From Candidatus Limnocylindrales bacterium (GTDB lineage Bacteria > Chloroflexota > Limnocylindria > Limnocylindrales > CSP1-4), in assembly GCA_044449585.1 (NCBI GenBank), contig JBIOID010000001.1:1-26391 (forward strand): a stretch of 26,391 nucleotides of DNA. Direction: 5' to 3'. The notes beneath the pieces are model-generated. The model had not been told where the DNA came from, searched no databases, and saw nothing but the letters and a program-made list of their open reading frames with translations. Both the position numbers and the translations under genes were made by a program. Below are positions 5,351-22,647 of this stretch, in pieces (within the stretch, counting starts at the first letter, position 1; every line of letters starts with the position of its first letter).

Positions 5351-5830
5351 ATGGTCACGTGGGGTGGATTCGAAGCCGCAGCACCGGACATCGCCGCGCG
5401 TGGGCGGGAGCTCCTGTACCGGATCGACCATGGTCAGGCGCTCCTGGTCACGGTGCGCGGCGAACAGCTGCCCGATGTGCACCCGATCTCGCTGGCCGTG
5501 GTCGGCAGCGGGCTGTACGCGTTCATCCTCCCGTCGCCCAAGCTGGAGGACCTCGAACGCGACGGCCGCTATGCGCTGCATGCCCATTTCGACCCCCTCG
5601 TACCGCACGAGTTCGTGCTGCGCGGTCGGGTCCGGCCGGTGGACGACGTCACGCGCGCCGCGCTCGCGGCGGACTGGAGCTGGACGGTGGGCAGCGCGCG
5701 GGCCTTCGAGTTCCTCGTGGAGCACGTCCTGCTTGGCGAGCGGGCGAGCGCCGACGATTGGCCGCCGCGCTACACCACCTGGCCGAGCCCAGCCCAGCCC
5801 AGCCTCACGGCGTCCACCGGTCGCGCCTAG
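5351..5830 (+). CDS. Pyridoxamine 5'-phosphate oxidase-like (split beta-barrel, PPOX-like) protein, 159 aa
   Basis: MVTWGGFEAAAPDIAARGRELL...LVTVRG...PDVHPI...SPKLEDLERDGRYALH matches the PPOX-like family pattern. GGAGG upstream of the ATG at 5351, which is the 3' part of track ORF 4205-5830. Confidence 0.8.
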   Translation: MVTWGGFEAAAPDIAARGRELLYRIDHGQALLVTVRGEQLPDVHPISLAVVGSGLYAFILPSPKLEDLERDGRYALHAHFDPLVPHEFVLRGRVRPVDDVTRAALAADWSWTVGSARAFEFLVEHVLLGERASADDWPPRYTTWPSPAQPSLTASTGRA

Positions 5831-5846
5831 GAGGCCCCGTCGCGCC

Positions 5847-6440
5847 TCAGAGCAGCTGGGTCACGAGCGCTTCCACCTGGGCCAGCGATGCCGGCGTCGC
5901 CGTCGCGGTGATGGCGACGAGCGTCGACCCCTTGGTCGCCACGACCTCCTCGTTGTCCTTGCCGTTGTTCAGCGACTGCACGAATGACGAGGCCTGGTCG
6001 CCCACCCCGGTCACGCTCACGGGTGGGACCGGGAACTTGGCGATGAACTTCGAGATGAGCGACGGGTCGGTGTTCGTGACCATCTCGATGATCACGTTGG
6101 CCGACGTTCCGGGATACTCGCATGACACGCCGGTCGCCCCGGTCGGCAATTGGGTCGCATCGCCGGTGGGGACCGACAAGGGCCCGGTGAGGCTGACGCC
6201 CAGGGCGGCGTTGACCGCGGCGGCCGTCGGGCAGGTGCTGGCGGCGGCGCCCGCCGTCGCGGTCGCCACGGCTGCCAAGCTGCCCGTCGGAGCGACCGTG
6301 GCCGCCGGCGCGGTGGCCGCAGTGGTCGGTGGCGCGGTGGCCCCGGTCGTGGGCGACCCGCCGCTCGTACTGCAGGCGGCGAGAGCCACCGCGACAAGGA
6401 CCGTGGTGAGCGTCAACCAGCGCGAGCTGCTGCGAGACAC
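5847..6440 (-). CDS. Lipoprotein with a Thr/Ala/Pro linker and a DUF3558-like Cys-pair domain, 197 aa
   Basis: Signal peptide with lipobox LAA-C, a TAP-rich linker, then CPTAAAVNAALG...SCEY...VTGVGDQA. GTG start with AAGGAGG upstream. The DUF assignment is by resemblance only. Confidence 0.8.
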   Translation of the reverse strand: MSRSSSRWLTLTTVLVAVALAACSTSGGSPTTGATAPPTTAATAPAATVAPTGSLAAVATATAGAAASTCPTAAAVNAALGVSLTGPLSVPTGDATQLPTGATGVSCEYPGTSANVIIEMVTNTDPSLISKFIAKFPVPPVSVTGVGDQASSFVQSLNNGKDNEEVVATKGSTLVAITATATPASLAQVEALVTQLL

Positions 6441-6625
6441 GTGCGACGCCTCCTTTCCGAGATCGTCGCACCCGGTTCGGCTGGAACGTCGTGGCTGCGG
6501 CGGCCCCTCGGCGCGGACAGGTTAGGGCATCTGCCAGGACGTGCGCCATGACTGGCCGGCTGATCTGCGGTGAGGGCGCTGCTTGAGCAGTAGGTTCCGT
6601 TCGCCACATAGATGGGTGTGCGCCG

Positions 6626-6655
6626 TTGACGCGCGACATCGGGCTCCACTAGGCT
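6626..6655 (+). promoter_or_regulatory. Putative sigma70-type promoter TTGACG-N18-TAGGCT
   Basis: -35 TTGACG at 6626-6631 and -10 TAGGCT at 6650-6655, upstream of the GAGGAG RBS and GTG at 6710. Confidence 0.55.
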
Positions 6656-7414: not shown

Positions 7415-8058
7415 CCCGCGCTTCGTGTATCACGGGCGCGTCGTGCGCCGTGACGGCTGGATCGCGCTCCACTACATGTACTTCTACTTCATGAACGACT
7501 GGCGCTCCACGTTCGCGGGCGCCAACGACCACGAGTCCGACTGGGAGCAGATCCTGGTCTTCCTCGAGGATGCGCCGGAGGGTCCCCGCCCTGTCATCAA
7601 CGCCGGGCGCAGCCGAGAGGCGCAGCTGCTGGACACCTTGCGCGCCGGCCGCGCCGAACTCTCCCGGCTGAAGGCCGGCGACTTCGGTGATCCGCGGGCC
7701 CACCTGCACCACGCCCAGCATCCGGTCCCGCCTGAGCTGGTTCGCCAGGGGCGTTTTGTCGAGCTGTGGGCCGCCACGAGCATCAGCTTCGTGATGGTCG
7801 CCGTGATCATGCTGACCTACACCGGGGCGATGCGCTGGTGGGTGGCCCTGGCGGTCGGCATCGTCGCGTACACGACCATCGAGGCCGCCTTCTGGCGCCG
7901 GCTGACCACACTCCTCCTCCGCGCGACACTCGCCCTGGCCGCAGTGGGCGCCTTGAATCCTGGCGTACGAGTTCGCCGGGCTGCTCCTCGTGATCGCCCT
8001 GGTCGGTCTGGCGGCCTTGACGCTGGCGGACAACGTGCGCGAGATCCGGCGCGGCTGA
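7194..8058 (+). pseudogene. Degraded Vps62/NPP1-like (DHExDWE motif) membrane-anchored protein: 5'-truncated, probable internal deletion, +1 frameshift near 7956
   Basis: Core motif HYMYFYFMNDW...NDHESDWEQ at about 7470-7550. No good RBS or start. The hydrophobic C-terminus continues in another frame after TTG-A-ATC at 7953-7959 (ILAYEFAGLLLVIALVGLAALTLADNVREIRRG, stop at 8058). Confidence 0.65.
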
Positions 8059-8080
8059 GCCCCACGAGCTGAAGCGCGAC

Positions 8081-9082
8081 ATGCTCGAACGGGTCGCGGA
8101 CCTGGTGCATGGCAGCCAACCGTTGCCGGCGGACCTGGAGGCCCTGGAGGCCAAGCTCCTCTTCGATCGGCCGCCGGTCCGTGACCGCCTGGTCAGGTTC
8201 TTCGTCCTTCTGTTCCTGGCCACCGTCATCGCCGCCGGCGGCCTCATGGGGAACTCGAGCGCGGTGATCATCGGGGCGATGATCGTGGCACCGTTGATGA
8301 CGCCGATGATGGCCGCGTCGCTTGCGACGCTCACCGGAGATGGCCCCAACATCGTCCGATCGGTGGTCATCGTCACGATCGGCGTCGCCTTCGTCATGGT
8401 GGTGGCCGGCCTGATGGCGCTGCTCGTCCCGGCCGGCAGCCGGATCACGCCGGAGGTCCTGGCGCGGACATCGCCCCATCTGCTCGACCTGATCATCGCT
8501 CTGGCGGCCGGAGCCGCCGGGGCCTTCGCCATCGGCCGTACGGATGTCTCCGATGCCCTGCCAGGGGTCGCCATCGCCGTCTCGCTGGTGCCACCACTGG
8601 CCGCCTCCTCCATCCTGCTGGTGGCCGGCGAGCCGGCGGCAGCCGGCGGCGCCTTCCTGCTCTTCTTCACCAACTTCGTGGCGATCGTGGCGGCCGGGGT
8701 CGTCGTCCTCGCCCTGATGGGCTACGGCAGCCTGGCCCGTCGCCTGGCGAGTCGGGCTGCCCGACGCACGGCGAGCCTCGTCATCCTCATCGCGCTGCTC
8801 CTGATCATCGTGCCGCTCGGCATCACGAGCTACCACGTGCTGATCAACGACCAGCTCCAGGGTCAGGCGAGCACGGCTCTTTCGTTCTGGCTGGCGGGGA
8901 CCAGCTACGAGGTCCAATCGGTCTCGGCTGACGACGGCCACGTGGACGCGTACGTCGCCGGTGAAGGGGCGCCCCCCCCGATGTCCGCCCTGCTGGCCGA
9001 CTTGCAGAACGAGGGCGTGCAGGCGACCATCGCGGTCCACATCCAGCCTGAACAGACCCTCAACGGGTCCACCGATCCCTGA
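8081..9082 (+). CDS. DUF389-family hydrophobic membrane protein, 333 aa
   Basis: Signature segments SSAVIIGAMIVAPLMTP, RTSPHLLDLIIALAAGAAGA, LPGVAIAVSLVPPL and FFTNFVAI. Confidence 0.9.
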   Translation: MLERVADLVHGSQPLPADLEALEAKLLFDRPPVRDRLVRFFVLLFLATVIAAGGLMGNSSAVIIGAMIVAPLMTPMMAASLATLTGDGPNIVRSVVIVTIGVAFVMVVAGLMALLVPAGSRITPEVLARTSPHLLDLIIALAAGAAGAFAIGRTDVSDALPGVAIAVSLVPPLAASSILLVAGEPAAAGGAFLLFFTNFVAIVAAGVVVLALMGYGSLARRLASRAARRTASLVILIALLLIIVPLGITSYHVLINDQLQGQASTALSFWLAGTSYEVQSVSADDGHVDAYVAGEGAPPPMSALLADLQNEGVQATIAVHIQPEQTLNGSTDP

Positions 9083-9094
9083 CGCCCCGCTTCC

Positions 9095-9114
9095 GTCGCC
9101 GGGTACCCGGCGAC
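9095..9114. repeat. Perfect 20-bp palindrome GTCGCCGGGTACCCGGCGAC downstream of the DUF389 gene (possible terminator or structured leader)
   Basis: Self-complementary over all 20 nt, starting 12 nt after the stop codon. No U-tract. Confidence 0.5.
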
Positions 9115-9218
9115 CCAGATCGTCTGACCTGACCGGGAGGTCCGGTCGATGACGGGCCGTTCGACTCTGGCGCCGCCCTGACGGCAGCCTCACGCTGACC
9201 ACACAGAAGGAGGCGCTC

Positions 9219-9620
9219 ATGCCTGTCACCACCCCGCCCGTCACCACTCCGTTCGACGAGGACATCCTCGCCCGCGCCATGGGCAACGTGTACTTCCGCG
9301 AAGTCGTCTCGACCGGCCCGCACGCCCAGGTCGTCGTGATGAGCATCCCGCCCGGGGGCGAGATCGGCGAGGAGGTCCATGCCGACGTCGACCAGGTCCT
9401 GGTCTTCGTCGCCGGCACCGGCGTGGCCATGCTCGAGGGTCAGCGCCGCGCGGTGTCCCCCGGGTTCCTCGTCCATGTCCCGGCTGGCACCCGTCACAAC
9501 TTCGTCAATGAGGGGCTGGTCGACCTCAAGCTCTACACGGTGTACGCGCCACCCGAGCACGCGCCGGGCACGATCCACCGGACCAAGGCCGAGGCCGACG
9601 CGGACGAAGGGCATCGCTGA
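9219..9620 (+). CDS. Cupin-domain protein, 133 aa
   Basis: FREVVSTGPHAQVVVMSIPPGGEIGEEVH...DQVLVFVAG...VPAGTRHNFVN...LYTVYAPPEH. RBS AAGGAGG. Confidence 0.92.
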   Translation: MPVTTPPVTTPFDEDILARAMGNVYFREVVSTGPHAQVVVMSIPPGGEIGEEVHADVDQVLVFVAGTGVAMLEGQRRAVSPGFLVHVPAGTRHNFVNEGLVDLKLYTVYAPPEHAPGTIHRTKAEADADEGHR

Positions 9621-11869: not shown

Positions 11870-11908
11870 CGGCCTGTGCAGAGATCCAGGCGCTTCGATG
11901 GCCGTCAC

Positions 11909-13066
11909 ATGGCCCGCCGCGTCGACGGCCCGCGATGGCGCCGCGGTGTCCGGCGGAGGTTCGCGGCGGGCGGAGCAGGCGCCGGCGTCGTCCTCGTCGC
12001 ATTCGCCCTCCTTGGGGGCCAGCGCGCCACGACGCCGAGCAGCGACAGCCTTACCGCCCGCAGCACCGCCCCGCCCGTCCTTTCGACCGCGGTCCCGTCC
12101 GTGGATCTGGCCGCCAGTACGTCGCCGACTTCCACCCGCCCGTCGGCGGCACCCATCGCGAGCGGTGTGTTCGCGGGCGACCTGCTCATCGCCGACCGCG
12201 GGAACGGCCGCATCCTGATCGTCAACGCAGCGGACCAGATCCTCTGGCGCTTCCCGGTCGCCGGCAGTCTGCCGCCCGGACAGACGTTCAGCGCCGACGA
12301 CGCCTTCCTCTCACCGGATGGGCGCACGATCTCCGCCAACGAGGAGATGCGCCAGGTCCTCGTGCGTATCGACATCGCGAGTCGTCGCATCGTCTGGGAA
12401 TACGGCCACTACGGGCGCGCCGGGGCGGGCGCCGGGTACCTCGACACGCCCGACGATGCGTACCCGATGGCGAACGGGGACGTGACCGTGGCCGACATCT
12501 TCAATTGCCGCATCCTTGAGATCGCCCCCGACAAGCAGGTGGTCCGTCAATGGGGCCACACCGGCATCTGTCGCGACGCCCCGCCGTACAGCTACGACCA
12601 GCCCAACGGTGACACCCCGCTGCCGGATGGCGGTCTGCTCATCACCGAGATCCGCGGCTCGCGGGTCGTGCGCCTCGACTCGGCCGGTCGGGTCGTCTTC
12701 GACATCCACGTCCCCGTCAGCTATCCCTCTGATGCGCAGCTCGACGCCGCCGGCAACGTCATCGTCGCGGACTATTCCGCCCCCGGTGCGGTGGTGAAGA
12801 TGTCACCGACTGGCCACCTCCTGTGGCTATACGGCCCGCGAACGGGCCCGGGGCGACTCGATCACCCGAGCCTGGCCGTGCCGCTGCCCGACGGGACGAT
12901 CTTGCTGAACGACGACTTCCGCCACCGCGTGATCATCATCGACCCGCGAACCGACGCTATCGTCTGGCAATACGGTCGCTCAGATGCGCCGGGCCGGTCG
13001 TCTGGACGGCTGAACACGCCCGACGGGATAAACCTTGTGCCAGCGGGCAGCATCGTTGGCATCTGA
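11909..13066 (+). CDS. Membrane-anchored or secreted beta-propeller protein (NHL / PQQ-like / arylsulfotransferase-like repeats), about 385 aa
   Basis: Arg-rich N-terminus, hydrophobic helix and S/T/P linker. About six repeats (ADDAFLSPDG, PDDAYPMANG, PNGDTPLPDG, PSDAQLDAAGN, PSLAVPLPDG, PDGINLVP), each followed by D..R.v.i and ivWqYG strands. Confidence 0.8.
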   Translation: MARRVDGPRWRRGVRRRFAAGGAGAGVVLVAFALLGGQRATTPSSDSLTARSTAPPVLSTAVPSVDLAASTSPTSTRPSAAPIASGVFAGDLLIADRGNGRILIVNAADQILWRFPVAGSLPPGQTFSADDAFLSPDGRTISANEEMRQVLVRIDIASRRIVWEYGHYGRAGAGAGYLDTPDDAYPMANGDVTVADIFNCRILEIAPDKQVVRQWGHTGICRDAPPYSYDQPNGDTPLPDGGLLITEIRGSRVVRLDSAGRVVFDIHVPVSYPSDAQLDAAGNVIVADYSAPGAVVKMSPTGHLLWLYGPRTGPGRLDHPSLAVPLPDGTILLNDDFRHRVIIIDPRTDAIVWQYGRSDAPGRSSGRLNTPDGINLVPAGSIVGI

Positions 13067-13141: not shown

Positions 13142-14113
13142 ATGCTCGCAACCTCGACCGACGCCCGGGCGACCGCGATGAACGGCGTCGCACGTCGCAC
13201 GTGGGCCGCCCTGGGCACGACGTGCACCGTGCTGGTGACCCGGCCGGACCGCCTGGCTCCGGCCTGCGCGGCCGTGGAGGCCGAGCTGGACCTGGTCGAC
13301 GCGACGTACAGCCGGTTCCGCGCGGACTCGGAGTCGACCCGCCTCAACGGATCCGCCGGCCGGCCGACCGTCGTGAGCCCGCTCCTTGGGGAGGCGATCT
13401 CGGCCGCCCTGCAGGCCGCGCGCGTGACGGATGGAGCGGTGGATCCCACGGTCGGGCGAGCGATGCGCGCGATCGGCTACGACACGGACTTCGCCGACCT
13501 GTCCGGACGGGACGTGCCGCTGGTGCTGCGCCTGGAAGCTGTCCCCGGTTGGCGGGCCGTCGGCTTCGACGCCACCCGTCGCCTGCTGACCCTGCCGCAG
13601 GGCGTCGAGCTCGACCTGGGCTCGGTCGGCAAGGCCCTTGCCGCCGATCGGTCGGCGGCAGCGGCGCATCGTGCGATGGGCGCCGGCGGCGTGCTGGTGG
13701 GGCTGGGCGGCGACATCGCCATCGCCGGCCCGACGCCTCGATCGGGTTGGCCCGTGCTGGTCGCCGAAGACAGCCATGCCCCGTCGGATGGGCCGGGTGA
13801 GGTCCTGCGACTGACCGGCGGCGCCATCGCAACCTCGAGCACGACGGTTCGTCGGTGGGCCCAGTCGGGTCTCGCCCGCCACCACCTGGTCGATCCCGCC
13901 ACGGGTGCCCCGGTGGTCACGCCGTGGCGGAGCGCGACGGTGCTCGCCGGTTCGTGCGTGGACGCCAACACGGCCGCGACCGCGGCGATCGTCAAGGCGG
14001 ATCGCGCGGTCGAGTGGCTGGCCCGGATCGGCCTTTCCGCCCGGCTCATCGCCAACGATGGGCGCGTGCTCCGGCTCAACGGCTGGCCGTCCGGCGAGGC
14101 GGTGGCGGCGTGA
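13142..14113 (+). CDS. apbE: FAD:protein FMN transferase (ApbE family), copy A, 323 aa
   Basis: ALGT, SRFRADSE, DPTVG, ELDLGSVGKALAAD, LGGDIA, IATSST and HHLVDPATG motifs. Confidence 0.93.
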   Translation: MLATSTDARATAMNGVARRTWAALGTTCTVLVTRPDRLAPACAAVEAELDLVDATYSRFRADSESTRLNGSAGRPTVVSPLLGEAISAALQAARVTDGAVDPTVGRAMRAIGYDTDFADLSGRDVPLVLRLEAVPGWRAVGFDATRRLLTLPQGVELDLGSVGKALAADRSAAAAHRAMGAGGVLVGLGGDIAIAGPTPRSGWPVLVAEDSHAPSDGPGEVLRLTGGAIATSSTTVRRWAQSGLARHHLVDPATGAPVVTPWRSATVLAGSCVDANTAATAAIVKADRAVEWLARIGLSARLIANDGRVLRLNGWPSGEAVAA

Positions 14114-14721
14114 CTGACCAGGTGTTGTGGTTCGCCACGCGTGGGGCCGGCGCCGTGTCGCTGCTCATGCTGACGGGGGTCGTGCTGCTCGGGGTGCTCA
14201 GCGTCCACCGCTGGCAGGGCCCCTCCTGGCCCCGCTTCCTGACGGCCGGTCTGCACCGCAACCTGGCGTTGCTCTCGCTGGTCTTCCTCGCCATCCATAT
14301 CGTGACCGCAATCGTCGACCCCTTCACGGCGCTCGGCCTGGCGGCCGCCGTGGTGCCCTTCGCCTCGAGCTACCGACCGCTATGGGTCGGCGTCGGGGTC
14401 ATCGCCTTCGACTTGCTCCTTGCGCTGGTCGTGACGAGCCTCGTGCGAGCCCGGCTGGGCCACCGGACCTGGCGGGCCATCCACTGGGTCGCGTATGCCA
14501 TGTGGCCCCTGGCCCTCGCCCATGGCATCGGCAGCGGGTCTGACAACCTGGCACCGTGGATGCTGGCGCTCGACGTCCTGTGCGTGACCGTGGTCAGCGT
14601 CGCGATCGTCTTGCGGGTCCTGATCGTCCGAGCGGGCAGTCCTGACGAACTGCAGCGTGTGGTCGAATCCGGCGTGGCCGAGACGACCGCGACGGGCCTG
14701 CCGTGGGAGGTCGGGCGATGA
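14110..14721 (+). CDS. Ferric-reductase-like / MsrQ-like di-heme b membrane cytochrome, copy A, 203 aa
   Basis: GTGA overlap with apbE. About five TM helices and two His pairs, LHRNLALLSLVFLAIH (i, i+14) and IHWVAYAMWPLALAH (i, i+13), followed by GIGSGSD. Confidence 0.9.
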   Translation: MTDQVLWFATRGAGAVSLLMLTGVVLLGVLSVHRWQGPSWPRFLTAGLHRNLALLSLVFLAIHIVTAIVDPFTALGLAAAVVPFASSYRPLWVGVGVIAFDLLLALVVTSLVRARLGHRTWRAIHWVAYAMWPLALAHGIGSGSDNLAPWMLALDVLCVTVVSVAIVLRVLIVRAGSPDELQRVVESGVAETTATGLPWEVGR

Positions 14722-15962
14722 CTCGGCCACTCCAGGCACCACGGCTCCTCGCCGGGCCGGCCCTTGCCGCGGGGGCCGAACCCTTCCCTGATCACCAGGC
14801 GCGTCTGGGCCCCTTGCCCAGCTGGCGGGATGGAGCGCTCATCCCGGTCCTCGACGCCAGTGGCTTGAGCGGCCGCGGCGGAGCCGGCTTCCCGGTCGGC
14901 CGCAAATGGCGAGCGGTGGCCGATGCCGCCGGCGACTGGCCCGTCGTCCTGGTGAACGGAGCGGAGGGCGAGCCGCTGAGCGCCAAGGATCGCGCCCTGA
15001 TGGCCACACGGCCGCACCTGATCCTCGACGGCGCCCTGCTGGCGGCTGAAGCGGTCGCGGCGGAGCGGATCATCCTCTACGTCGGCGACGCACATCGGGC
15101 CGCGCGAGCGGCACTGGGCCGCGCCATCGTCGAACGAGGCCCCGCCGCCCAGGGCCGTTTCCGACTCGTCGCCGCTCCGGATCGCTACGTGGCCGGCGAG
15201 GAGTCAGCCGCGGTCCATTTCATCGACACCGGTGACGCCCGACCGGTGACCGTCCCACCCAGGCCATTCGAGCGGGGGGTCGGGGGCCGGCCGACCCTGG
15301 TCCAGAACGTCGAGACCCTGGCGCACGTCGCGCTCATCGCCCGATACGGTGACGCCTGGTACCGGGCGGCCGGTCCCGACGCGGCCCCGGGTACCGCGCT
15401 GGTCACGACGAGCGGCCCGGGGCGCCAGACGATGGTCCATGAGATCGACTTCGGGGAGACGATCGGTACGGTCGGCCAGCGGTTGGGGACACAGGCGGCC
15501 GACGTCCAGGCCGTTCTCATCGGTGGCTACTTCGGCGGTTGGATGGCTGGGTCGCGGGCGTGGTCGCAGCCCCTCGACCCGCTGAAGCTGCGCGAACAGG
15601 GGGTCGGATTCGGCTGCGGCGTGATCTCGTTCCTGGACCACGAGACATGCGGCGTGGATGTGGCTGCCCAGGTCATGGGCTACATGGCGGGCCAGAGCGC
15701 CGCCCAGTGCGGACCGTGCGTCTTCGGCCTGCGTGCGATCGCCGACGCCACCCTCCGCCTGGCCGGGGGCCGGGCGCAGGGCGATGATCTCGCTCGCCTC
15801 GAGCGGTGGATCGGGCAGCTGCGTGGACGGGGTGCCTGCCGTCATCCCGACGGCGCGGTCAACCATCTGGCCAGTGCCATGCACGTGTTCGGTGATGAGT
15901 TCCGGCTCCACCAGGTGCGCCGCACCTGCTCGCGCCGTGTGCGGGCCGAGCGCATCTCGTGA
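14718..15962 (+). CDS. Stand-alone NuoF-like (complex I 51-kDa family) FMN/NADH-binding Fe-S protein, 414 aa
   Basis: SGLSGRGGAGFP.GRKW, NGAEGEP.SAKDR, YVAGEESA, QNVETLA and a C-terminal QSAAQCGPC...GACRHPDG. ATGA overlap. No other nuo genes nearby. Confidence 0.9.
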   Translation: MTRPLQAPRLLAGPALAAGAEPFPDHQARLGPLPSWRDGALIPVLDASGLSGRGGAGFPVGRKWRAVADAAGDWPVVLVNGAEGEPLSAKDRALMATRPHLILDGALLAAEAVAAERIILYVGDAHRAARAALGRAIVERGPAAQGRFRLVAAPDRYVAGEESAAVHFIDTGDARPVTVPPRPFERGVGGRPTLVQNVETLAHVALIARYGDAWYRAAGPDAAPGTALVTTSGPGRQTMVHEIDFGETIGTVGQRLGTQAADVQAVLIGGYFGGWMAGSRAWSQPLDPLKLREQGVGFGCGVISFLDHETCGVDVAAQVMGYMAGQSAAQCGPCVFGLRAIADATLRLAGGRAQGDDLARLERWIGQLRGRGACRHPDGAVNHLASAMHVFGDEFRLHQVRRTCSRRVRAERIS

Positions 15963-16228
15963 GCGGCGCGCAGCCGATGCAGCTTGCGGTGGACCGCATC
16001 CGCTGCGACGGATCGGCGCTCTGTGCGGAGATCCTGCCGGAGCTGATCAGCCTCGACGACTGGGGTTACCCGATCCTCTTGGCCGCACCGGTGCCGAACC
16101 ACCTGCTGGACCTCGCTCGACAGGCCGTCGATGCCTGTCCGGTGCTGGCCCTGCGGCTGCAGGGCACCGTCAACAACCCTGGATCAGGTACGCAGACGGC
16201 CCGCGCCGCCCGGGTCCGGGCCCGCTGA
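15959..16228 (+). CDS. Monocluster ferredoxin, probably [3Fe-4S] (CxxSxxC...CP), 89 aa
   Basis: VDRIRCDGSALCAEILPE...GYP...AVDACPVLAL. GTGA overlap with the NuoF-like gene, with an alternative ATG at 15977. Confidence 0.88.
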   Translation: MSGAQPMQLAVDRIRCDGSALCAEILPELISLDDWGYPILLAAPVPNHLLDLARQAVDACPVLALRLQGTVNNPGSGTQTARAARVRAR

Positions 16229-16289: not shown

Positions 16290-16667
16290 ATGAACCAGCG
16301 ATCACGACGAGCCGCCCGATCACCCGCCGCGTATGCACGCGATGCGGGGCTGCGCCGTCTGCATGAGCTGACCGTGGCTGCGGCCGTGCTCGGCGCGACC
16401 GGGACGGTCGTGCTGGGCGGGGCGGCGGCGGTCACCTACGCGGGGCATGCCAGCCCCAGCAGCACGCCCGTCGAGCAGGGTGCCGCCACCGATCCCGGCG
16501 CGACGGGTCCGACCGGGTCGACGCCGACCACCCCTCCGGCGACCAGCGGCGGTCAACACCACAACCACAGCTCTTCGTCGGGGTCTCTCGGGCAGGTCCC
16601 GCCGCCGGTCACGAACGTGAGGCCGGGCAACCCTGGCTCGGGCCTCATCACCTCCGGAGGCTCGTAG
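16290..16667 (+). CDS. Small single-TM protein with a disordered S/T/G/P tail ending ITSGGS, 125 aa. Candidate flavinylation substrate.
   Basis: ATG at 16290, Arg-rich n-region with LRRL, hydrophobic helix VAAAVLGATGTVVLGGAAAV and a low-complexity tail. A -10-like TAACGT lies at 16262-16267. Confidence 0.75.
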   Translation: MNQRSRRAARSPAAYARDAGLRRLHELTVAAAVLGATGTVVLGGAAAVTYAGHASPSSTPVEQGAATDPGATGPTGSTPTTPPATSGGQHHNHSSSSGSLGQVPPPVTNVRPGNPGSGLITSGGS

Positions 16668-16700: not shown

Positions 16701-18005
16701 TCAGCGCAGGGGGATCCTGACCGTGAACCGGGCGCCCCCGCCTGGTTCATCGCCGACGACGATGGTGCCCCCATGTCGCTGGGCGACCGTTCGTGCGACG
16801 GCCAGCCCGAGGCCCGTCCCCTCGGCGCGCTCGCGCCGCCCGCCGGCCGCGCGAACGAACGGTTCGAAGATCCGTTCGCGGTCACCGGCAGGGACGCCTG
16901 GCCCCCGATCGCCTACCGATACCCAGCCGAAGCCGCGGTCACGACCCATGTCGACGGTGACCGTCGAGCCGTGGGGCGAATGGCGCGTGGCATTGTCCAG
17001 CAGCACCAGCATGACCTGGAGCAAGCGGTCGGCGTCGCCGCTGATCGGCAGCGCCGGGGGTGGGTCGGCCGCGACGGCCACCGTGCACCCGCGTTCCGCC
17101 CCGAGCGGCGCCACCCGGGCGACGGCGTCGACCGCGATCGCCGCAAGGTCGAGTGGTTCGAGGTGGACGACACTGGGATCGACGCGCGAGACCGACAGGG
17201 CGAGCAGACCCGCCACCAACCGGCTCAGCCGATCGGCTTCGGCCACGATGCCCGTCACGAGGGCCGCGCCCTCGGGTCGCACCAGCGCCTCGCGCTGCAG
17301 CACCTCGCCCGAGGCGTGGATGATGGCCGCCGGGGTGCGCAACTCGTGGGACGCGGCGGCCACGAACCGTCGCTCGGTCGCGAACGCGGCCCGGATCGGG
17401 ACGAGCGCGCGGCCAGTCAGGAGCAGGGCGAGCAGGGCGGCACAGGCCAGGCCGACGAGACCCACGAGGGTCACCGTGCCCACCAGGTCAGACGCCTGCC
17501 GGTCGTGCAGGGTGAGGATGAGACCGGCCTGGACGGCGCCGATCGCGGCCGCCCCGTCGGACGAGGGGATCGCGAGCGTCAGCAGTCGGACCGGCAGCCC
17601 CCCGGCCGTGACCGTGCGCAGATCTGATCCGGCCGCCAATGCGTGCGACAGCGCGGCCCTATCGGGCAGACCTGCCAGCCGGATGCCCCGCGGGTTCTGC
17701 ACCACGTGGCCGGAGGGGTCGAGCACCGTCACGAATGTGTCTGACGAGCCGACCGGCTCGTCGCTGGTCGCCGTCTCGCTGTCGCCGCCGTCAGCCCCGG
17801 GAAGCTGTCCCTCCAGGCCAGTCAGGGCGTTCTGCGCGGTCGACCGCAGGGCGGCGTCCGTCGCGGCGTCGAGCTGGGCCGTGACCACCACGACCGTCGC
17901 GACCCCCATCGCGACCAGCAGAGCGGCGAGCAGACCGAGCGTCAAGAGCGCCAGTCGGCGACGCGTCGAAACGAGCAGGCGCTCGGTGGGATCGCGCACG
18001 GTCAC
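16701..18005 (-). CDS. Sensor histidine kinase (module B), 434 aa
   Basis: Two TM helices, H-box AAASHELRTP, LLDNATRH, DRGPGVP and GTGLGLAV. GTGA overlap with the RR. Confidence 0.95.
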   Translation of the reverse strand: MTVRDPTERLLVSTRRRLALLTLGLLAALLVAMGVATVVVVTAQLDAATDAALRSTAQNALTGLEGQLPGADGGDSETATSDEPVGSSDTFVTVLDPSGHVVQNPRGIRLAGLPDRAALSHALAAGSDLRTVTAGGLPVRLLTLAIPSSDGAAAIGAVQAGLILTLHDRQASDLVGTVTLVGLVGLACAALLALLLTGRALVPIRAAFATERRFVAAASHELRTPAAIIHASGEVLQREALVRPEGAALVTGIVAEADRLSRLVAGLLALSVSRVDPSVVHLEPLDLAAIAVDAVARVAPLGAERGCTVAVAADPPPALPISGDADRLLQVMLVLLDNATRHSPHGSTVTVDMGRDRGFGWVSVGDRGPGVPAGDRERIFEPFVRAAGGRRERAEGTGLGLAVARTVAQRHGGTIVVGDEPGGGARFTVRIPLR

Positions 18006-18673
18006 GCCTCACTGAGCGTATAGCCGACACCGCGCACGGTGCGCAGTCGCCGGCCACGGCCGAGCGTCGCCAGCTTCCGGCGAAGGTAGGAGACGTACAG
18101 GTCGACGACGTTCGAGTAGACGTCCGGCTCGGCGCCCCACACCGCATCGAGGATCTGGCGACGACTCAGCACGCGCCCCGCGTTGCGGATGAGGTACGCG
18201 AGCAAGGCGAACTCACGCGCCGTCAGCTCGACGCTGGCGTCGCCGACGCGGGCGACGTGGCGTTGCTGATCCAGCTCGATGTCGCCGGCCACCAACCGTT
18301 CCTCGGCGGTCGCGACCGGCCGCCGGCCGAGTGCACGAAGTCGCGCCAGGAGCTCGGCGAAGGCGAACGGCTTGGTCAGGTAATCATCTGCCCCGGCGTC
18401 GAGGCCGACGACCCGCTGCTCGACCGAGCCGAGGGCCGTCAGCATGAGCACGGGCGTCCGATCGCCGCGTCCGCGCAGGAGCTGGAGCACCTCGGTACCA
18501 TCCAGGTCGGGCAGCATGCGGTCGAGGACGATGGCGTCGTAGCCGCCGTTGCCAGCCAGCGCCAGCCCTGCCACCGCGTCCTCGGCGAGGTCGACCCCGA
18601 AGCGCTCAGCGACCAGCACCCGGCGGATCAATTCCCCCATCCGGGGCTCATCCTCGACGATCAGGACACGCAT
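18002..18673 (-). CDS. OmpR-family response regulator (module B), 223 aa
   Basis: MRVLIVEDE, VLDRMLPD, LMLTALG, GADDYLTKPF, VVDLYVSYLRRKL and TVRGVGY. Confidence 0.95.
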   Translation of the reverse strand: MRVLIVEDEPRMGELIRRVLVAERFGVDLAEDAVAGLALAGNGGYDAIVLDRMLPDLDGTEVLQLLRGRGDRTPVLMLTALGSVEQRVVGLDAGADDYLTKPFAFAELLARLRALGRRPVATAEERLVAGDIELDQQRHVARVGDASVELTAREFALLAYLIRNAGRVLSRRQILDAVWGAEPDVYSNVVDLYVSYLRRKLATLGRGRRLRTVRGVGYTLSEA

Positions 18674-18758
18674 CACCTCATCGTTGGGAGCTGGCGCCGG
18701 GCGGTCAACGTCCGAACGGCCCCTTTTCGGGGGAGCGTCCGGTCACCTGGGCGAGCGT

Positions 18759-19622
18759 TCACGCCGCCCGCGGTGCGCCCACGGCGACGGGCCAGTAGTT
18801 CTCGACGATGATGGCGGCGGTGGGGAAGCCGCATGCCACCAGGGCCGCCGTTGCCGCGGTGATCGCTTCAGGGTTGCCGCAGAGATAGGCGATCGTGCGG
18901 TCCGGGTCGACCGCTGATCGTTCGCAGACGCTGGCCAGGATCCCGTCGATGCGCCCGGTCAGGCCGGTCCACTCGCGGTTGTCGGGGTGCGCGGGTCGCG
19001 AGACCACCGGGATGTAGCGCAGCCGGGGATCGGTCTCGGCCCGACGCGCGAGCTCGTCCCGATACGCCAGTTCCGCCACGTAGGCGACGCCGTGGACGAC
19101 CACGGCGCTGGGCCGGATGCCACCGTCGGGCACGGACAGGACCGTCTCGAGCATCGAGCGCATGGGCGCCAGGCCCGTACCGGTCGCGATGAAGAGGTGC
19201 GCACGAGGATCCTGGGAGCGCAGGACGAAGAGGCCCTTGGGCTTCCCGATGCGGACGCGGGCGCCGACCGGCAATGTCCAAAGCCGCGGCGTCAGCGCGC
19301 CGCTCGCGACGCGCCGGATCAGGAACTCGAGGCTTTTGGACGGGCCCGGCACCGACGCGGTCGAGTAGGGCCGTTGCAGCAGATGGCCGTCGAGCAGCAG
19401 GCCAAGCGCGAGGTATTGACCGGGCTCGAAACGCGGGACGCCATCGTCCGGCCTGATCCAGAAGCGAGCGACGGATGGTGTGAGATCGACCCGGCGGACC
19501 AGCGTGGCATTCGGGACAGCGGCCCCCACCGCCGCGGCTCGGGTGGTGACTCCGCCGATGGCGTGCACGGGTTCGTCCCACGCACCGGCAGCGTCCCTCG
19601 TGACCATCGCCTCGACGCTCAT
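18759..19622 (-). CDS. Ferredoxin-NAD(P)+ reductase-like FAD/NAD(P)-binding oxidoreductase, 287 aa
   Basis: FEPGQY, RPYST (FAD), GALT, IATGTGLAPM, YLCGNP and ENYW. The ATG at 19622 overlaps the ferredoxin stop (ATGA). Confidence 0.92.
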   Translation of the reverse strand: MSVEAMVTRDAAGAWDEPVHAIGGVTTRAAAVGAAVPNATLVRRVDLTPSVARFWIRPDDGVPRFEPGQYLALGLLLDGHLLQRPYSTASVPGPSKSLEFLIRRVASGALTPRLWTLPVGARVRIGKPKGLFVLRSQDPRAHLFIATGTGLAPMRSMLETVLSVPDGGIRPSAVVVHGVAYVAELAYRDELARRAETDPRLRYIPVVSRPAHPDNREWTGLTGRIDGILASVCERSAVDPDRTIAYLCGNPEAITAATAALVACGFPTAAIIVENYWPVAVGAPRAA

Positions 19623-19909
19623 GCGGCGGGCATCAGGGCGTCGACGGCGGCGCGCGCGGCGTCGGGGTCCCGGTAGAACGACGCCTCGACGCGCGCGTAG
19701 GCGGCCCACTCGGCCGGTAGCGCATCGATGCGGAAGATGGCGCCATTGGGACACGCCGCTTCGCACGATCCACAGTCGATGCACCCGCCCGGGTCGACGT
19801 AGAACTTGCGGTCGATGTCAGGGTCGGCGCTGATGCAGTCGACCGGGCAGACGGCCACGCAGGACTGGTCCATATGATCGATGCACGGTTCGGCGATGAC
19901 GTAGGCCAT
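19619..19909 (-). CDS. fdxA: 7Fe (3Fe-4S + 4Fe-4S) FdxA-type ferredoxin, 96 aa
   Basis: MAYVIAEPCIDHMDQSCVAVCPVDCI...CIDCGSCEAACP with a C-terminal helical extension. RBS AAGGAGG. Confidence 0.9.
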   Translation of the reverse strand: MAYVIAEPCIDHMDQSCVAVCPVDCISADPDIDRKFYVDPGGCIDCGSCEAACPNGAIFRIDALPAEWAAYARVEASFYRDPDAARAAVDALMPAA

Positions 19910-19921
19910 GGTGGGACCTCC

Positions 19922-20674
19922 TTACACGGGATGAGCGGCGGACGCCAGGCGCGGCTGCGCAAGGGCGATGACCACCCGGTAGACGAAGAAGAAGACGACG
20001 AGGGCGCACGGCACCAGGTACGACCAATACGCCCAACCGGCGCCGCTGTCCGATCCGGACGCGATGCCGTGGGCGGTGACCCCCAGGAAGCCGGCGAAGG
20101 TCAGGTAGTGGATGAGGCGCCAGGCGCGCTGCCCGATCCGGCGGCGCACGTAGAAGCTGCCCGTCACGATGGCGATGACATAGAACGCCAGCTGGCCGAT
20201 GCCGACCGCGACCGGCGCATAGGGCGACGCGAACGGCACGGCGATGGCGACAGGTGTGAACGCATACGTGTGGTCGCCCAGGAGCAGGAGCCCGTGCAGC
20301 GCCGACAACGCCAGCCCGACCAGCGCCAGGTCCTTGTGCAGGGCGAAGCTCACCGGTCGATGGGCGATCCGGTCAAGGAGCTTGGTCGAGAGCAGCAGGC
20401 CGTAGGTGACCGACCCGGCCACCGCGAAGTAGGCCAGGAAGCCGGTGGCACGCACGGCATACCAGGCGATGTTGGCCGGCGTGATGGCGGCCGCCGTCGC
20501 CAGTGTCGACAGCGCGCCAGGCAGCGTCGCTCCGATGACGATGCCGAGCATGGCGCCGTAGGTGAGCGCGACCGCGACCGCCACTGGGCGCGGGAGCCCG
20601 CGATAGACCGGGACGCGGGCTGCGGCTCGGCCGGCCGGTGCGCCGGTGCTCGTTGCGGGGGTGGGCGGGGGCAT
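19922..20674 (-). CDS. Ferric-reductase-like / MsrQ-like di-heme b membrane cytochrome, copy B, about 250 aa
   Basis: WYAVRATG, His pairs LHKDLALVGLALSALH (i, i+14) and IHYLTFAGFLGVTAH (i, i+13), and GIASGSD. It has an extra N-terminal TM compared with copy A. Confidence 0.9.
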   Translation of the reverse strand: MPPPTPATSTGAPAGRAAARVPVYRGLPRPVAVAVALTYGAMLGIVIGATLPGALSTLATAAAITPANIAWYAVRATGFLAYFAVAGSVTYGLLLSTKLLDRIAHRPVSFALHKDLALVGLALSALHGLLLLGDHTYAFTPVAIAVPFASPYAPVAVGIGQLAFYVIAIVTGSFYVRRRIGQRAWRLIHYLTFAGFLGVTAHGIASGSDSGAGWAYWSYLVPCALVVFFFVYRVVIALAQPRLASAAHPV

Positions 20675-20687
20675 CTCGCGACTCGCT

Positions 20688-21659
20688 CTAGGCCGCAAGG
20701 AGCGCCAGCGTGCCGGGCAGGGCCAACGTCTCGTGACGCTCGGTCAGGATGACCGCCCCGTCCACACCCGCCCGTTCGAGCCGGGTGAGTCCGTCGTGGG
20801 AGCCGGCGATGACGGTCGCCTTCGCGAACGCCTCGGCCTGCAGCGCGGTCGCACAGATGACGGTGGCCTGGATGATGTCCGTGACTGCCGGCTGACGCGT
20901 GCGCGGATCGATGAGATGGTGACGGACGCGGCCGTCACGGTGCCAGCGGTGGACGGACGTACCCGATGTCGCCACGCCCCAGCGGCTCGGCCACCCGTCG
21001 TCCTGGGCATCGAGATGGAGGATGGCCAGGGTCGCTTCGGCGGCACGCGGGTCGTCGACGGCCACCTCCCAGCGCTGCCCCGAAGCGCCCCGTATCGCGA
21101 GGTCGCCATCGGCGTCGATCACGACGCTCGGCCACGAGGTGAGGAGGGCAAGGGCACGGTCGGCGAGCCAACCCTTGGCGATGCCGCCGAGGTCGAACCG
21201 CAGGCCCGCCGGCCGCTGCACGACCGCTCCGCGGCGCAGATCGGGCGTGACCGACCAGCGACCGGAAGCCGGCCCATGCGAACGGGCAGCGAGCAGCCCC
21301 TCGGCCGCCAACCGCTCGTCGAGCAGGGTGACGTCGACGAGGCCGTCGCCCAGGCGCTGAGCCGAGGCCCCGGCGGCCAAGGCCGCTGCGAGGGTCGGCC
21401 CGACGAGCACCTCCGAACCCGGCGCCGCGTTGAGCCGGGACAGTTCGGACGTGTCGAGGTGCCGGCTCAGGCGGTCACCCCAGTGGCACATCCGGGCCAG
21501 CACCCGCTGGGCATCACGACCGGCGCGTACCGCATCGGTCGACGCGATGTGGACCGCGAGCCGGCCACCCATGGCCGACGTCGTCTCCGAGATCGGGGCG
21601 ATCGGCTCGCGGATCGAACCGTGACGCGTCTTGGTCGCTCGAGGATGAGCCGATCCCAT
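20688..21659 (-). CDS. apbE: FAD:protein FMN transferase (ApbE family), copy B, 323 aa
   Basis: AMGG, LSRHLDTSELSRLN, FDLGGIAKGWLAD, DADGDL, GVATSGT and HHLIDPRT. The ATG at 21659 overlaps the upstream stop (TGATG). Confidence 0.93.
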   Translation of the reverse strand: MGSAHPRATKTRHGSIREPIAPISETTSAMGGRLAVHIASTDAVRAGRDAQRVLARMCHWGDRLSRHLDTSELSRLNAAPGSEVLVGPTLAAALAAGASAQRLGDGLVDVTLLDERLAAEGLLAARSHGPASGRWSVTPDLRRGAVVQRPAGLRFDLGGIAKGWLADRALALLTSWPSVVIDADGDLAIRGASGQRWEVAVDDPRAAEATLAILHLDAQDDGWPSRWGVATSGTSVHRWHRDGRVRHHLIDPRTRQPAVTDIIQATVICATALQAEAFAKATVIAGSHDGLTRLERAGVDGAVILTERHETLALPGTLALLAA

Positions 21660-22030
21660 CACGGGATCACCTTGCCGGACTGGGTCGTGCGCACCACCAC
21701 GGTCCTCTGGGCGGGTGCGGGTACGCGCGTCACGATCGTGATCGGGCGTGGTGCCTGGGCATCGATGACCGTCGCGCCCGGGGGCGGGGACTGGCCCGGC
21801 GCCAGCTGGACATACTGGATCGGCGTTTGCTGGGTGAGCGTGGCCGAGGTGGCGGACGTCGACCCAGGTGCGGTCGCTGCCGCGGAGGGAGGGACCACGA
21901 TGGCCGCGACGAGGGCCGACAGCGCCGCCGCCCCCGCCATGCCGACGGCGATGCGCAGTTGCGTCGGGTCCGGCCGCGCGGCGGTCGGCCGTACGGGCCG
22001 TGTCGGGGGGATCACCGGTCGCGTGTCCAT
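21659..22030 (-). CDS. Small single-TM Pro/Thr-rich protein ending VRTTQSGKVIP, 123 aa
   Basis: One hydrophobic helix IAVGMAGAAALSALVAAIVV. TGATG overlaps with both neighbours, indicating translational coupling. Confidence 0.78.
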   Translation of the reverse strand: MDTRPVIPPTRPVRPTAARPDPTQLRIAVGMAGAAALSALVAAIVVPPSAAATAPGSTSATSATLTQQTPIQYVQLAPGQSPPPGATVIDAQAPRPITIVTRVPAPAQRTVVVRTTQSGKVIP

Positions 22031-22356
22031 CAGCCGCCGCCGTCCTGCCCGTCGTCCCCGGGCTCACCGCCGGCGCCGGCCACCACGACGTGGACCACCT
22101 TCGGGGGGGCCGCGGGCGCCGCCTGCGTGACGTTGATGACCTGGGGCGGAGGCGCCGGCCGGACGTATACCAATTGCGGTGCCACCGACCCACCCGCGCT
22201 CGAAGGCGATGTCCCGTCCCCGACGGATCCGATCAGACCAGCCGACGGGGACGATGACGTCGCCTGGGAGCCGTGGGCGAGCCCGGCGCCGCCGACCGTC
22301 GCGACCACGGCGACAGTGGCCACGATCAGGGCGATGCGGTGAGCGGAGATGTCCAT
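22030..22356 (-). CDS. Small signal-peptide/TM protein with a Ser/Pro-rich body and a Gly/Asp tail, 108 aa
   Basis: MDISAHRIALIVATVAVVATVGGAGLA..., RBS AGAGGAAG, -10-like TAGCTT (22405-22400) and a TGATG overlap with the next gene. Confidence 0.75.
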   Translation of the reverse strand: MDISAHRIALIVATVAVVATVGGAGLAHGSQATSSSPSAGLIGSVGDGTSPSSAGGSVAPQLVYVRPAPPPQVINVTQAAPAAPPKVVHVVVAGAGGEPGDDGQDGGG

Positions 22357-22647
22357 GCGGTAGCTTCCTCTATTCGGCCGCGAGCCCGGCTTCACGAAGA
22401 AGCTAGTCGTCCAACCTGTGTCGCCACCTTGGACGAACGTGAGAAGACGCTCATGGGATGTGCTCGCCACTCGGAGGTCAGGGTCTGCCATGTGCCGACC
22501 CGCCTCTCAGGTAGTCAGAGGCCTGGCCGCGCCGGAAGGTTTCGGCGCACTTGGCGATACGCCCCACGTGACGGCGGCGATCGAGGCGCCGACAAAGCCC
22601 TCGCCCACGACTCGGTCGCCAGGCTCCGACCTGCTGGCGTGCGAGGA

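Follow-up and report, generated by a model that had tools for sequence, protein, structure and literature searches.

The window analysed here is a stretch of 26,391 nucleotides from a Candidatus Limnocylindrales bacterium (contig JBIOID010000001.1). The gene in question, at 16290..16667 of its forward strand (stop codon included), encodes a 125-residue protein, here called SMALL, that spans the membrane once and has a disordered tail with a conserved motif at its C-terminus. On a modest balance of probability, SMALL is a core subunit of a module of ApbE, an MsrQ-like cytochrome, and a NuoF-like protein, and a natural flavin tag that would carry flavin mononucleotide (FMN) on its terminal serine at the outer face of the cytochrome. 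As judged from sequence, it is the best candidate for the flavinylation substrate of this module. As a hypothesis, its role as an ApbE substrate is well supported, because the gene is linked to the module, some relatives have a canonical SGAS or TGAS, and the modules contain no other candidate. SMALL represents an unannotated, conserved family in soil and peat Chloroflexota (Limnocylindria, Dormibacteria).

The SMALL open reading frame (ORF) is a real gene, because the GC content at third codon positions (GC3) agrees with its frame, the family is conserved, and the gene is translationally coupled in relatives. The window has a GC content of 72% and many chance open frames, and the GC3 of the SMALL frame is 0.85-0.90. 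The predicted cytoplasmic N-terminus (residues 1-26, 16290..16367, forward strand like the whole gene) is rich in arginine (8 of its first 25 residues) and contains the juxtamembrane motif R-D-x-[AG]-[LV]-x-R-[LV]-x-x-[LIM]-T. It is followed by a transmembrane (TM) helix from about L27 to V48 (16368..16433), located by hydrophobicity and AlphaFold2. The linker (residues 49-118, 16434..16643) is disordered and rich in T, S, A, G, and P, as judged from the AlphaFold2 confidence score (predicted local distance difference test, pLDDT) and the composition of the family. The C-terminal heptad L-I-T-S-G-G-S (16644..16664), recognized by conservation and register, ends in Ser125, the proposed FMN acceptor. 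The protein thus ends in ...GSGLITSGGS, and the stop codon is TAG (16665-16667). AlphaFold2, run on a 54-sequence alignment, predicts a single helix at residues 12-49 with a pLDDT of about 90 (88-95), an unstructured tail with block mean values of 47-63, and no folded domain. R17, R23, and T28 are invariant or nearly so in the family alignments A1 and A2, and both the juxtamembrane motif and the helix are conserved across the family.

The most hydrophobic 19-residue segment has a family mean Kyte-Doolittle value of 1.70. Lysine and arginine together average 4.7 in the N-terminal flank of the helix versus 0.46 in the C-terminal flank, and the N-terminal count is higher in 74/74 members. This predicts an orientation with the N-terminus inside and the C-terminus outside, a topology based on the positive-inside rule and hydrophobicity rather than on a dedicated predictor. 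The tail of the family members is 47-88 residues long and consists of 72% T, S, A, G, and P, and its sequence is not alignable. A histidine-rich patch lies in the middle of the tail (16557-16568), which reads HHNH in the window and QRHHH(H) in genus-level relatives. It is conserved within the genus only and could bind metal.

A preliminary description of this DNA had reported a 125-residue protein with an Arg-rich N-terminus, a single hydrophobic helix, and about 70 low-complexity residues, encoded by the last gene of a module (module A). The translation and AlphaFold2 confirm the protein, and the gene map of the window confirms its place. The end was correctly read as GLITSGGS before the stop codon, but the range given for it, 16647-16667, covers ITSGGS and the stop, and GLITSGGS starts at 16641. 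An internal near-copy of the motif, ATSGGQ, is present as described (residues 84-89, 16539-16556), but it is not conserved, since homologues carry GSGQ(R/H)HHH. It therefore carries no weight, and it is rejected as a second site.

A word-indexed search found 16 SMALL homologues, all of which end in GSG[LM][IV]TSGGS followed by the stop, and this end is invariant over 17 close homologues. An exhaustive profile search of 1.8 billion representatives gave 69 SMALL clusters, and a second indexed search gave 78 proteins of the family. Whole-genome searches detected the family in 43/151 genomes of the order at E <= 0.001, with strong matches (E <= 1e-10) in 34 of those 43, and in six families of the phylum Chloroflexota. 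The records are labelled as Candidatus Limnocylindrales, as 'Chloroflexi/Chloroflexia' metagenome-assembled genomes (MAGs), and in one case as a Candidatus Dormibacteria MAG. Two other SMALL-bearing MAGs are labelled Actinomycetota and Sulfotelmatobacter, and neither label is trusted. SMALL of the window has no Pfam or NCBIfam match, including to the FMN_bind (PF04205), DUF2271, and DUF3570 profiles, and the source records call the family proteins 'hypothetical'. A comparison of the 54 members of alignment A2 with Pfam gave only stray sub-threshold matches (E 0.0007-0.009) to DUF1206 (3 members), SteA-like_C, Trp_oprn_chp, and Rv2743c, none of which is related to flavinylation. A look-alike search of the ESM Atlas with SMALL returned only unnamed clusters of hypothetical proteins.

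The C-terminal motif [STAV]-[ST]-G-[GSAV]-S, followed by 0-4 residues, occurs in 119/124 non-redundant members of the family. The serine is the exact C-terminus in 86/119 members, and 1-4 residues lie beyond it in the remaining 33/119. Ser at position 0 and Gly at position -2 were preset by the search pattern that defines the 119 and are thus fixed. The other positions comprise H 60, L 19, Q 14, R 9, and M 8 at -6; V 72, A 35, and I 8 at -5; T 67, S 37, and V 12 at -4; S 69 and T 49 at -3; and G 110, S 6, A 2, and V 1 at -1. A canonical SGAS or TGAS is found in six members or look-alikes (P0060, P0075, L116, L119, L125, and L097). The heptad and the ApbE motif D-x-x-[S/T]-G-A-[S/T] share a seven-residue register, and S-G-G-S in the window differs from [S/T]-G-A-[S/T] by one substitution, at -1. 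The codons of the motif vary synonymously (Gly as GGC, GGG, GGA, or GGT and Ser as TCG, TCC, TCA, or AGC), and GGAGG is rare. The target of selection is thus the peptide rather than a ribosome-binding site.

The linkage survey covered 72 SMALL genes in 63 loci, which were picked solely for holding SMALL, and mapped the genes for ApbE, MsrQ-like and NuoF-like proteins, ferredoxin, response regulator, and histidine kinase around them. On the same strand within 6 kb, apbE is present for 60/72 copies, an MsrQ-like gene for 63/72, a NuoF-like gene for 55/72, and either apbE or an MsrQ-like gene for 66/72. In 37/72 cases, the same-strand apbE lies within 200 nt. One of the six copies with neither gene nearby is in a locus that ends at a contig end. 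By a rough estimate, a 3-Mb genome with about three apbE genes would have one within 6 kb by chance in about 1% of cases. Because related genomes do not count as independent, the linkage counts overstate the number of independent events. The varied gene orders nevertheless argue for repeated retention of the linkage.

Some lineages have the order SMALL-ApbE-MsrQ-NuoF-ferredoxin, in places extended by response regulator, histidine kinase, and a second SMALL, while the window and L126 have ApbE-MsrQ-NuoF-ferredoxin-SMALL. Loci L092, L123, and L127 have SMALL-MsrQ-NuoF-ferredoxin-ApbE. Another order, ApbE-MsrQ-response regulator-histidine kinase-SMALL, contains neither NuoF nor ferredoxin, and in G309 an ApbE and SMALL pair is on one contig and MsrQ-NuoF-ferredoxin-SMALL on another. 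In the relatives, close pairs of SMALL and its neighbour often share TGATG or a 4-nt overlap. Three apbE-MsrQ modules that were missed by the hidden Markov model have a small single-TM ORF beside apbE, which ends in ...VVQSGGS, ...AVGSGGS, or ...ASTGASGG. Two expectations of the preliminary description therefore agree with the survey. Motif-bearing small ORFs stand beside apbE-cytochrome-nuoF-like clusters across many genera and in several gene orders, and the terminal (T)SG[GA]S of the syntenic ORFs is retained despite a variable linker, as seen from the 119/124 members with the motif and the 47-88 residues of the linker. The last of the three ORFs above, at L097:6626-7378 (+) in G006, lies between the MsrQ-like gene and apbE and combines a TM segment with a predicted helical region and a canonical TGAS. 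It has no recognizable homology to SMALL, and the same design may have arisen here independently or diverged very far.

Some copies of SMALL have other surroundings. The genome of the window has a paralog on C15 (L017:2037-2399, minus strand), which is 120 aa long and ends in GSGLVTSGGS. Its context is RACo-MTTB-MTHFR-response regulator-histidine kinase-SMALL-F420H2 quinone reductase, and the ApbE-MsrQ-NuoF-ferredoxin block is absent. Sister genomes carry the module at this site, which is its ancestral place. It appears that the redox block left the MTHFR...response regulator-histidine kinase site with one SMALL copy, and that the other copy stayed by the kinase. A third SMALL clade of the same genus (GGQPGSGLVTSGGS, with an HHH(H) patch; L001, L005, L006, L048, L050, and L051) always has a polysaccharide deacetylase on one side and DUF1801 on the other, with no apbE anywhere near. 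In many loci, a GtrA-family gene is directly 3' of the SMALL copy that follows the histidine kinase (e.g., L007:10360-10785, L063, L082, L084, L085, and L101). Because glycosyltransferase genes occur near these GtrA-SMALL loci, glycosylation of the S/T-rich tail is possible. A Guanylate_cyc-AAA_16-TPR protein similar to one of the window (see below) is encoded directly upstream of SMALL in a distant metagenomic locus (L092:1723-4554), which may be a coincidence.

The module of the window, module A, is encoded on the forward strand. ApbE-A, an FAD:protein FMN transferase without a signal peptide (13142..14113; PF02424, E 8.6e-49), is followed by the MsrQ-like (Ferric_reduct) membrane cytochrome (14110..14721; PF01794, E 9.8e-10), whose GTGA start overlaps the apbE stop and whose sequence contains two His pairs with spacings of 14 and 13 residues. 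The NuoF-like NADH/FMN/4Fe-4S protein (14703..15962; PF01512 and PF10589), which would be the cytoplasmic electron input, matches the NCBIfam nuoF family below the cut-off of that family. A small Fer4_15 ferredoxin (15959..16228; PF13459, E 2.8e-12, with GC3 agreeing with its frame) precedes SMALL. Upstream of apbE is an NHL/PQQ-like beta-propeller with an N-terminal hydrophobic membrane anchor (11876..13066; PF13360), which is a possible extracytoplasmic partner. In relatives, including L004, L007, and others, YceI occupies the position of the propeller. An OmpR/CopR-type histidine kinase (16701..18005, minus strand) is convergent with SMALL and is paired with a response regulator (18002..18676, minus strand), and such a pair is part of the module in most relatives. 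A reading of the sequences found no [ST]G[AGS][ST] in any other protein of the SMALL module, and other module proteins are thus rejected as ApbE targets. The window has no FMN_bind protein, and no canonical [ST]GA[ST] is present in the real ORFs of module A or of module B, described below. The sole FMN_bind protein of the genome is on another contig, with its own ApbE.

Module B (18759-22506, minus strand) comprises a leaderless ApbE-B (domain at about 20688-21650), an MsrQ-like protein (19922-20698), and a FAD_binding_6/NAD_binding_1 reductase (18759-19784), and then comes the response regulator and histidine kinase pair. Compared by eye, ApbE-B reads ..TALQAEAFAKA.. where ApbE-A reads ..VDANTAATA.., which has the metal-site Asp. 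Given this sequence, ApbE-B may have diverged or lost its activity. The [ST]GGS end is absent from two small, Pro-rich ORFs with a single TM segment upstream in module B (21659-22063 and 22030-22506). Elsewhere in the window, a 537-aa ORF without a Pfam match (7817-9430, minus strand) contains the flavinylation-like string ..GDGSGASG.., and a 270-aa ORF, also without a Pfam match (5827-6639, minus strand), contains the strings ..TSGGSPTTGATAPP.. and ..LPTGATG.. in a low-complexity region. A large zinc-ribbon/adenylate-cyclase/AAA_16 signalling protein, which the protein upstream of SMALL in L092 resembles, is encoded at 277-3852 on the forward strand.

From the composition of the module, the following electron path is proposed. 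NADH would be oxidized by the NuoF-like flavoprotein, and the electrons would pass through the Fer4_15 ferredoxin to the inner heme and then to the outer heme of the di-heme MsrQ-like cytochrome. The outer heme would reduce the FMN on the C-terminal serine of SMALL, which would deliver the electrons to an extracytoplasmic acceptor. In this arrangement, the N-terminus of SMALL would remain in the cytoplasm, the helix in the membrane, and a linker of 50-90 residues would present the heptad x-[VAI]-[TS]-[ST]-G-[G/A/S]-S, onto whose last serine ApbE would move FMN from FAD. The tethered flavin would replace the FMN_bind domain of ordinary MsrQ-like systems, its candidate partners would be the propeller or YceI proteins, and the response regulator and histidine kinase pair presumably regulates or senses the system. 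The extended tether would reach about 15-30 nm, an estimate made here from 47-88 residues at about 0.35 nm each. We infer each electron-transfer step from the MsrQ-like systems (PMC8238504, PMC11334425), and the flavinylation of Ser125, its redox coupling to the cytochrome, the direction of the electrons, and their acceptor are proposed on the same footing. A more specific version is held only tentatively, as somewhat less probable than its negation. It states that SMALL is a domain-less, tethered, disordered flavin shuttle with one FMN on the C-terminal serine, which a leaderless ApbE possibly attaches in the cytoplasm, and that it takes up electrons at the outer heme and carries them through the cell envelope to acceptors that are extracellular or associated with the wall.

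ApbE-A looks catalytically competent from its sequence. In an alignment to solved ApbE/Ftp structures, its D..T metal site and the motifs DPTVG, GGD, and HHxxDP are all retained. The domain starts after only about 22 residues, and the frame is closed upstream. The same genome contains a canonical TM-anchored FMN_bind protein with DTVSGAT on contig C19 (L018 6281-6814, minus strand), next to an MsrQ-like Ferric_reduct-FAD/NAD fusion (L018 6830-8230, minus strand) and a divergently transcribed ApbE without a signal peptide (L018 8323-9213, plus strand). The objection that enzyme and acceptor are in different compartments is weakened, because this canonical pair has the same mismatch, and the lineage must already solve the export problem somehow. 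A leaderless ApbE with an exported substrate seems to be general in the lineage. Short SMALL chains might leave the ribosome before membrane targeting, so that flavinylation could take place in the cytoplasm and the unfolded tail would be translocated afterwards. The N-terminus of SMALL was also considered as a Tat signal and rejected, since only one Arg is nearly invariant and the spacing does not suit an S/T-R-R-x-F-L-K-like motif. About half of the members have AR, DR, ER, QR, GR, or DK at the twin-arginine position.

Several observations weigh against SMALL as a flavin tag. The protein has no flavin-binding fold to hold or tune the FMN. Position -1 is Gly instead of Ala in 92% of the members, and this A-to-G substitution is not reported in the cited flavinylation literature. 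The canonical Asp at -6 is absent, being Leu119 in the window and His, Gln, or Arg elsewhere, and the acceptor is always Ser in the family, whereas the ApbEs studied prefer Thr. In the preliminary description, SGGS was a one-substitution ApbE motif at a free C-terminus. The substitution is confirmed, but the serine is not terminal in every member, as counted above, and the missing Asp is a further departure. No signal peptide or hydrophobic anchor is found in the ApbE of about 35 modules, while the SMALL tail is predicted outside in 74/74 members. SMALL copies without a redox module also exist (the C15 paralog, the deacetylase/DUF1801 clade, and L115), and 18/72 copies lie directly after a histidine kinase (within 300 nt, same strand). 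Published work on the motif speaks for SMALL as a substrate. A D-to-A change in the first residue hardly affects flavinylation, G-to-A and A-to-V substitutions still give about 50% flavinylation, and cytoplasmic ApbEs exist (PMC12052999).

An unlikely alternative is that SMALL is a non-flavinylated structural or assembly subunit of the MsrQ-like complex, whose helix packs on the cytochrome and whose C-terminus binds a partner or cofactor, with the ApbE substrate elsewhere. The linkage to the MsrQ-like gene is slightly above that to apbE (63 vs 60), modules of SMALL, MsrQ, NuoF, and ferredoxin without a nearby apbE are found at L075, L078, L114, L119, L124, and L125, and the conserved juxtamembrane motif and TM helix, together with the departures of the motif at -1 and -6, suit such a subunit. 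It leaves unexplained, however, why a leaderless apbE is the immediate and often overlapping neighbour in 37/72 cases, and why ApbE and SMALL pairs occur without a cytochrome (L113). The modules offer no alternative ApbE substrate, and the conserved end has the flavinylation register, with canonical SGAS or TGAS in several lineages. A role of SMALL as an accessory of the OmpR/CopR-type two-component system, as a tethered ligand or modulator of the kinase with the redox genes merely co-regulated, is quite improbable. The copies within 300 nt of a kinase, the C15 paralog that stays with the regulator pair despite the missing redox block, the convergent kinase that SMALL abuts in the window, and the second SMALL copy after the kinase in many modules all agree with it. 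The C15 paralog had suggested an exclusive tie of SMALL to the two-component system, an idea that did not survive the wider synteny survey. No such pair is present in the stretch examined at L058, L072-L074, L080, L081, L083, L089, and L090, and the redox block appears to have moved to the window locus together with a SMALL copy. The accessory role leaves the ApbE-like motif unexplained, and it is also compatible with a flavinylated SMALL as the signal sensed by the kinase.

It is very improbable that the C-terminus is the target of another modification or of sorting (glycosylation, cell-wall or lipid attachment, or proteolysis), with ApbE nearby only because both serve the envelope. In its richness in S/T/P, the tail resembles O-glycosylated linkers, and GtrA-family genes, glycosyltransferases, and a polysaccharide deacetylase recur beside SMALL copies. 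These neighbours are lineage-specific, whereas the linkage to apbE and the MsrQ-like gene spans six families, and ApbE is the sole modifying enzyme consistently linked to SMALL. The motif is not known as a sorting signal. The chance that the ORF is spurious in DNA of 72% GC, or that its GGS codons are the ribosome-binding site of the next gene, is negligible. High-GC DNA is rich in long open frames, and the last SMALL codons in the window read GGAGGC, which is Shine-Dalgarno-like. Yet GC3 backs the frame, more than 120 homologues share the architecture, and the motif is kept without a following same-strand gene, as in the window. A nucleotide-level cause of the GGS codons is refuted by their synonymous variation and the rarity of GGAGG. 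In most adjacent pairs, apbE is in the +2 frame relative to SMALL. A programmed frameshift or read-through that would make SMALL an anchor of ApbE was rejected, since in the window and in several other lineages SMALL does not adjoin apbE, and since it is the amino-acid sequence that is conserved.

Flavinylation by ApbE provides a major route by which bacterial cells pass electrons outward, and the natural ApbE substrates found described in the literature all have a folded domain that holds the flavin. If SMALL is flavinylated, ApbE would have a new class of substrate, which domain-based and signal-peptide-based surveys cannot detect, and the protein would exemplify a new design of extracytoplasmic electron transfer. 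The orphan apbE-MsrQ-NuoF module that many soil and peat Chloroflexota carry would then be explained, and the question would arise of how a leaderless ApbE serves an exported acceptor. SMALL would also be a natural precedent for the Flavin-tag, and the variant motif [ST]GGS could widen the repertoire of such tags.

The closest known relatives of the module are the MsrQ-like flavinylation-associated systems (Meheust et al. 2021, eLife, PMC8238504), which include 31 clusters with a NuoF-like protein. Both have apbE clustered with a PF01794 di-heme cytochrome, a cytoplasmic NAD(P)H-oxidizing NuoF-like module (PF01512/PF10589), and a membrane-anchored extracytoplasmic carrier with a low-complexity linker and a site of the [S/T]G(A)[S/T] type, where for SMALL both the outer location and the site are predicted. 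In contrast, the SMALL module has no FMN_bind (PF04205), DUF2271, or DUF3570 domain, its putative acceptor is a bare C-terminal heptad, and it regularly includes a Fer4_15 ferredoxin and a response regulator and histidine kinase pair. The same survey notes that orphan apbE genes with unknown substrates remain, and it was restricted to clusters in which a target gene had a predicted signal peptide or lipobox (PMC8238504). SMALL modules would be excluded from it, because their ApbE and other proteins have no signal peptides.

Like the motif of SMALL, the canonical D-x-x-[S/T]-G-A-[S/T] of NqrB/C, RnfD/G, PplA, and similar proteins (PMC12052999) has S/T at -3 and Gly at -2, and its hydroxyl acceptor at 0 corresponds to the proposed acceptor Ser of SMALL. 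In SMALL, the motif is at or within 4 residues of the C-terminus and not inside a folded domain. A seven-residue motif suffices for flavinylation by ApbE and works best at a protein terminus (PMC12052999). As far as the engineered Flavin-tag is described there (Tong et al. 2021, cited in PMC12052999), a short unstructured terminal peptide likewise suffices as an ApbE substrate, but this tag is an artificial DxxSGAT on soluble proteins, while SMALL is natural, membrane-tethered, and encoded beside its own ApbE, and has a variant motif. The unstructured C-terminal extensions of FMN_red proteins are validated flavinylation sites (Huang et al. 2024, mSystems, PMC11334425), and SMALL resembles them in having its candidate site on a disordered C-terminal extension. 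The FMN_red extension folds back on its own flavin-binding domain (PMC11334425), whereas SMALL has no such domain. The C19 system of the same genome has a carrier with the same TM anchor and S/T/P linker as SMALL, and its ApbE is also leaderless. In contrast to SMALL, this carrier ends in a folded FMN_bind domain with a canonical motif, and its cytochrome and NAD(P)H module form one fusion protein.

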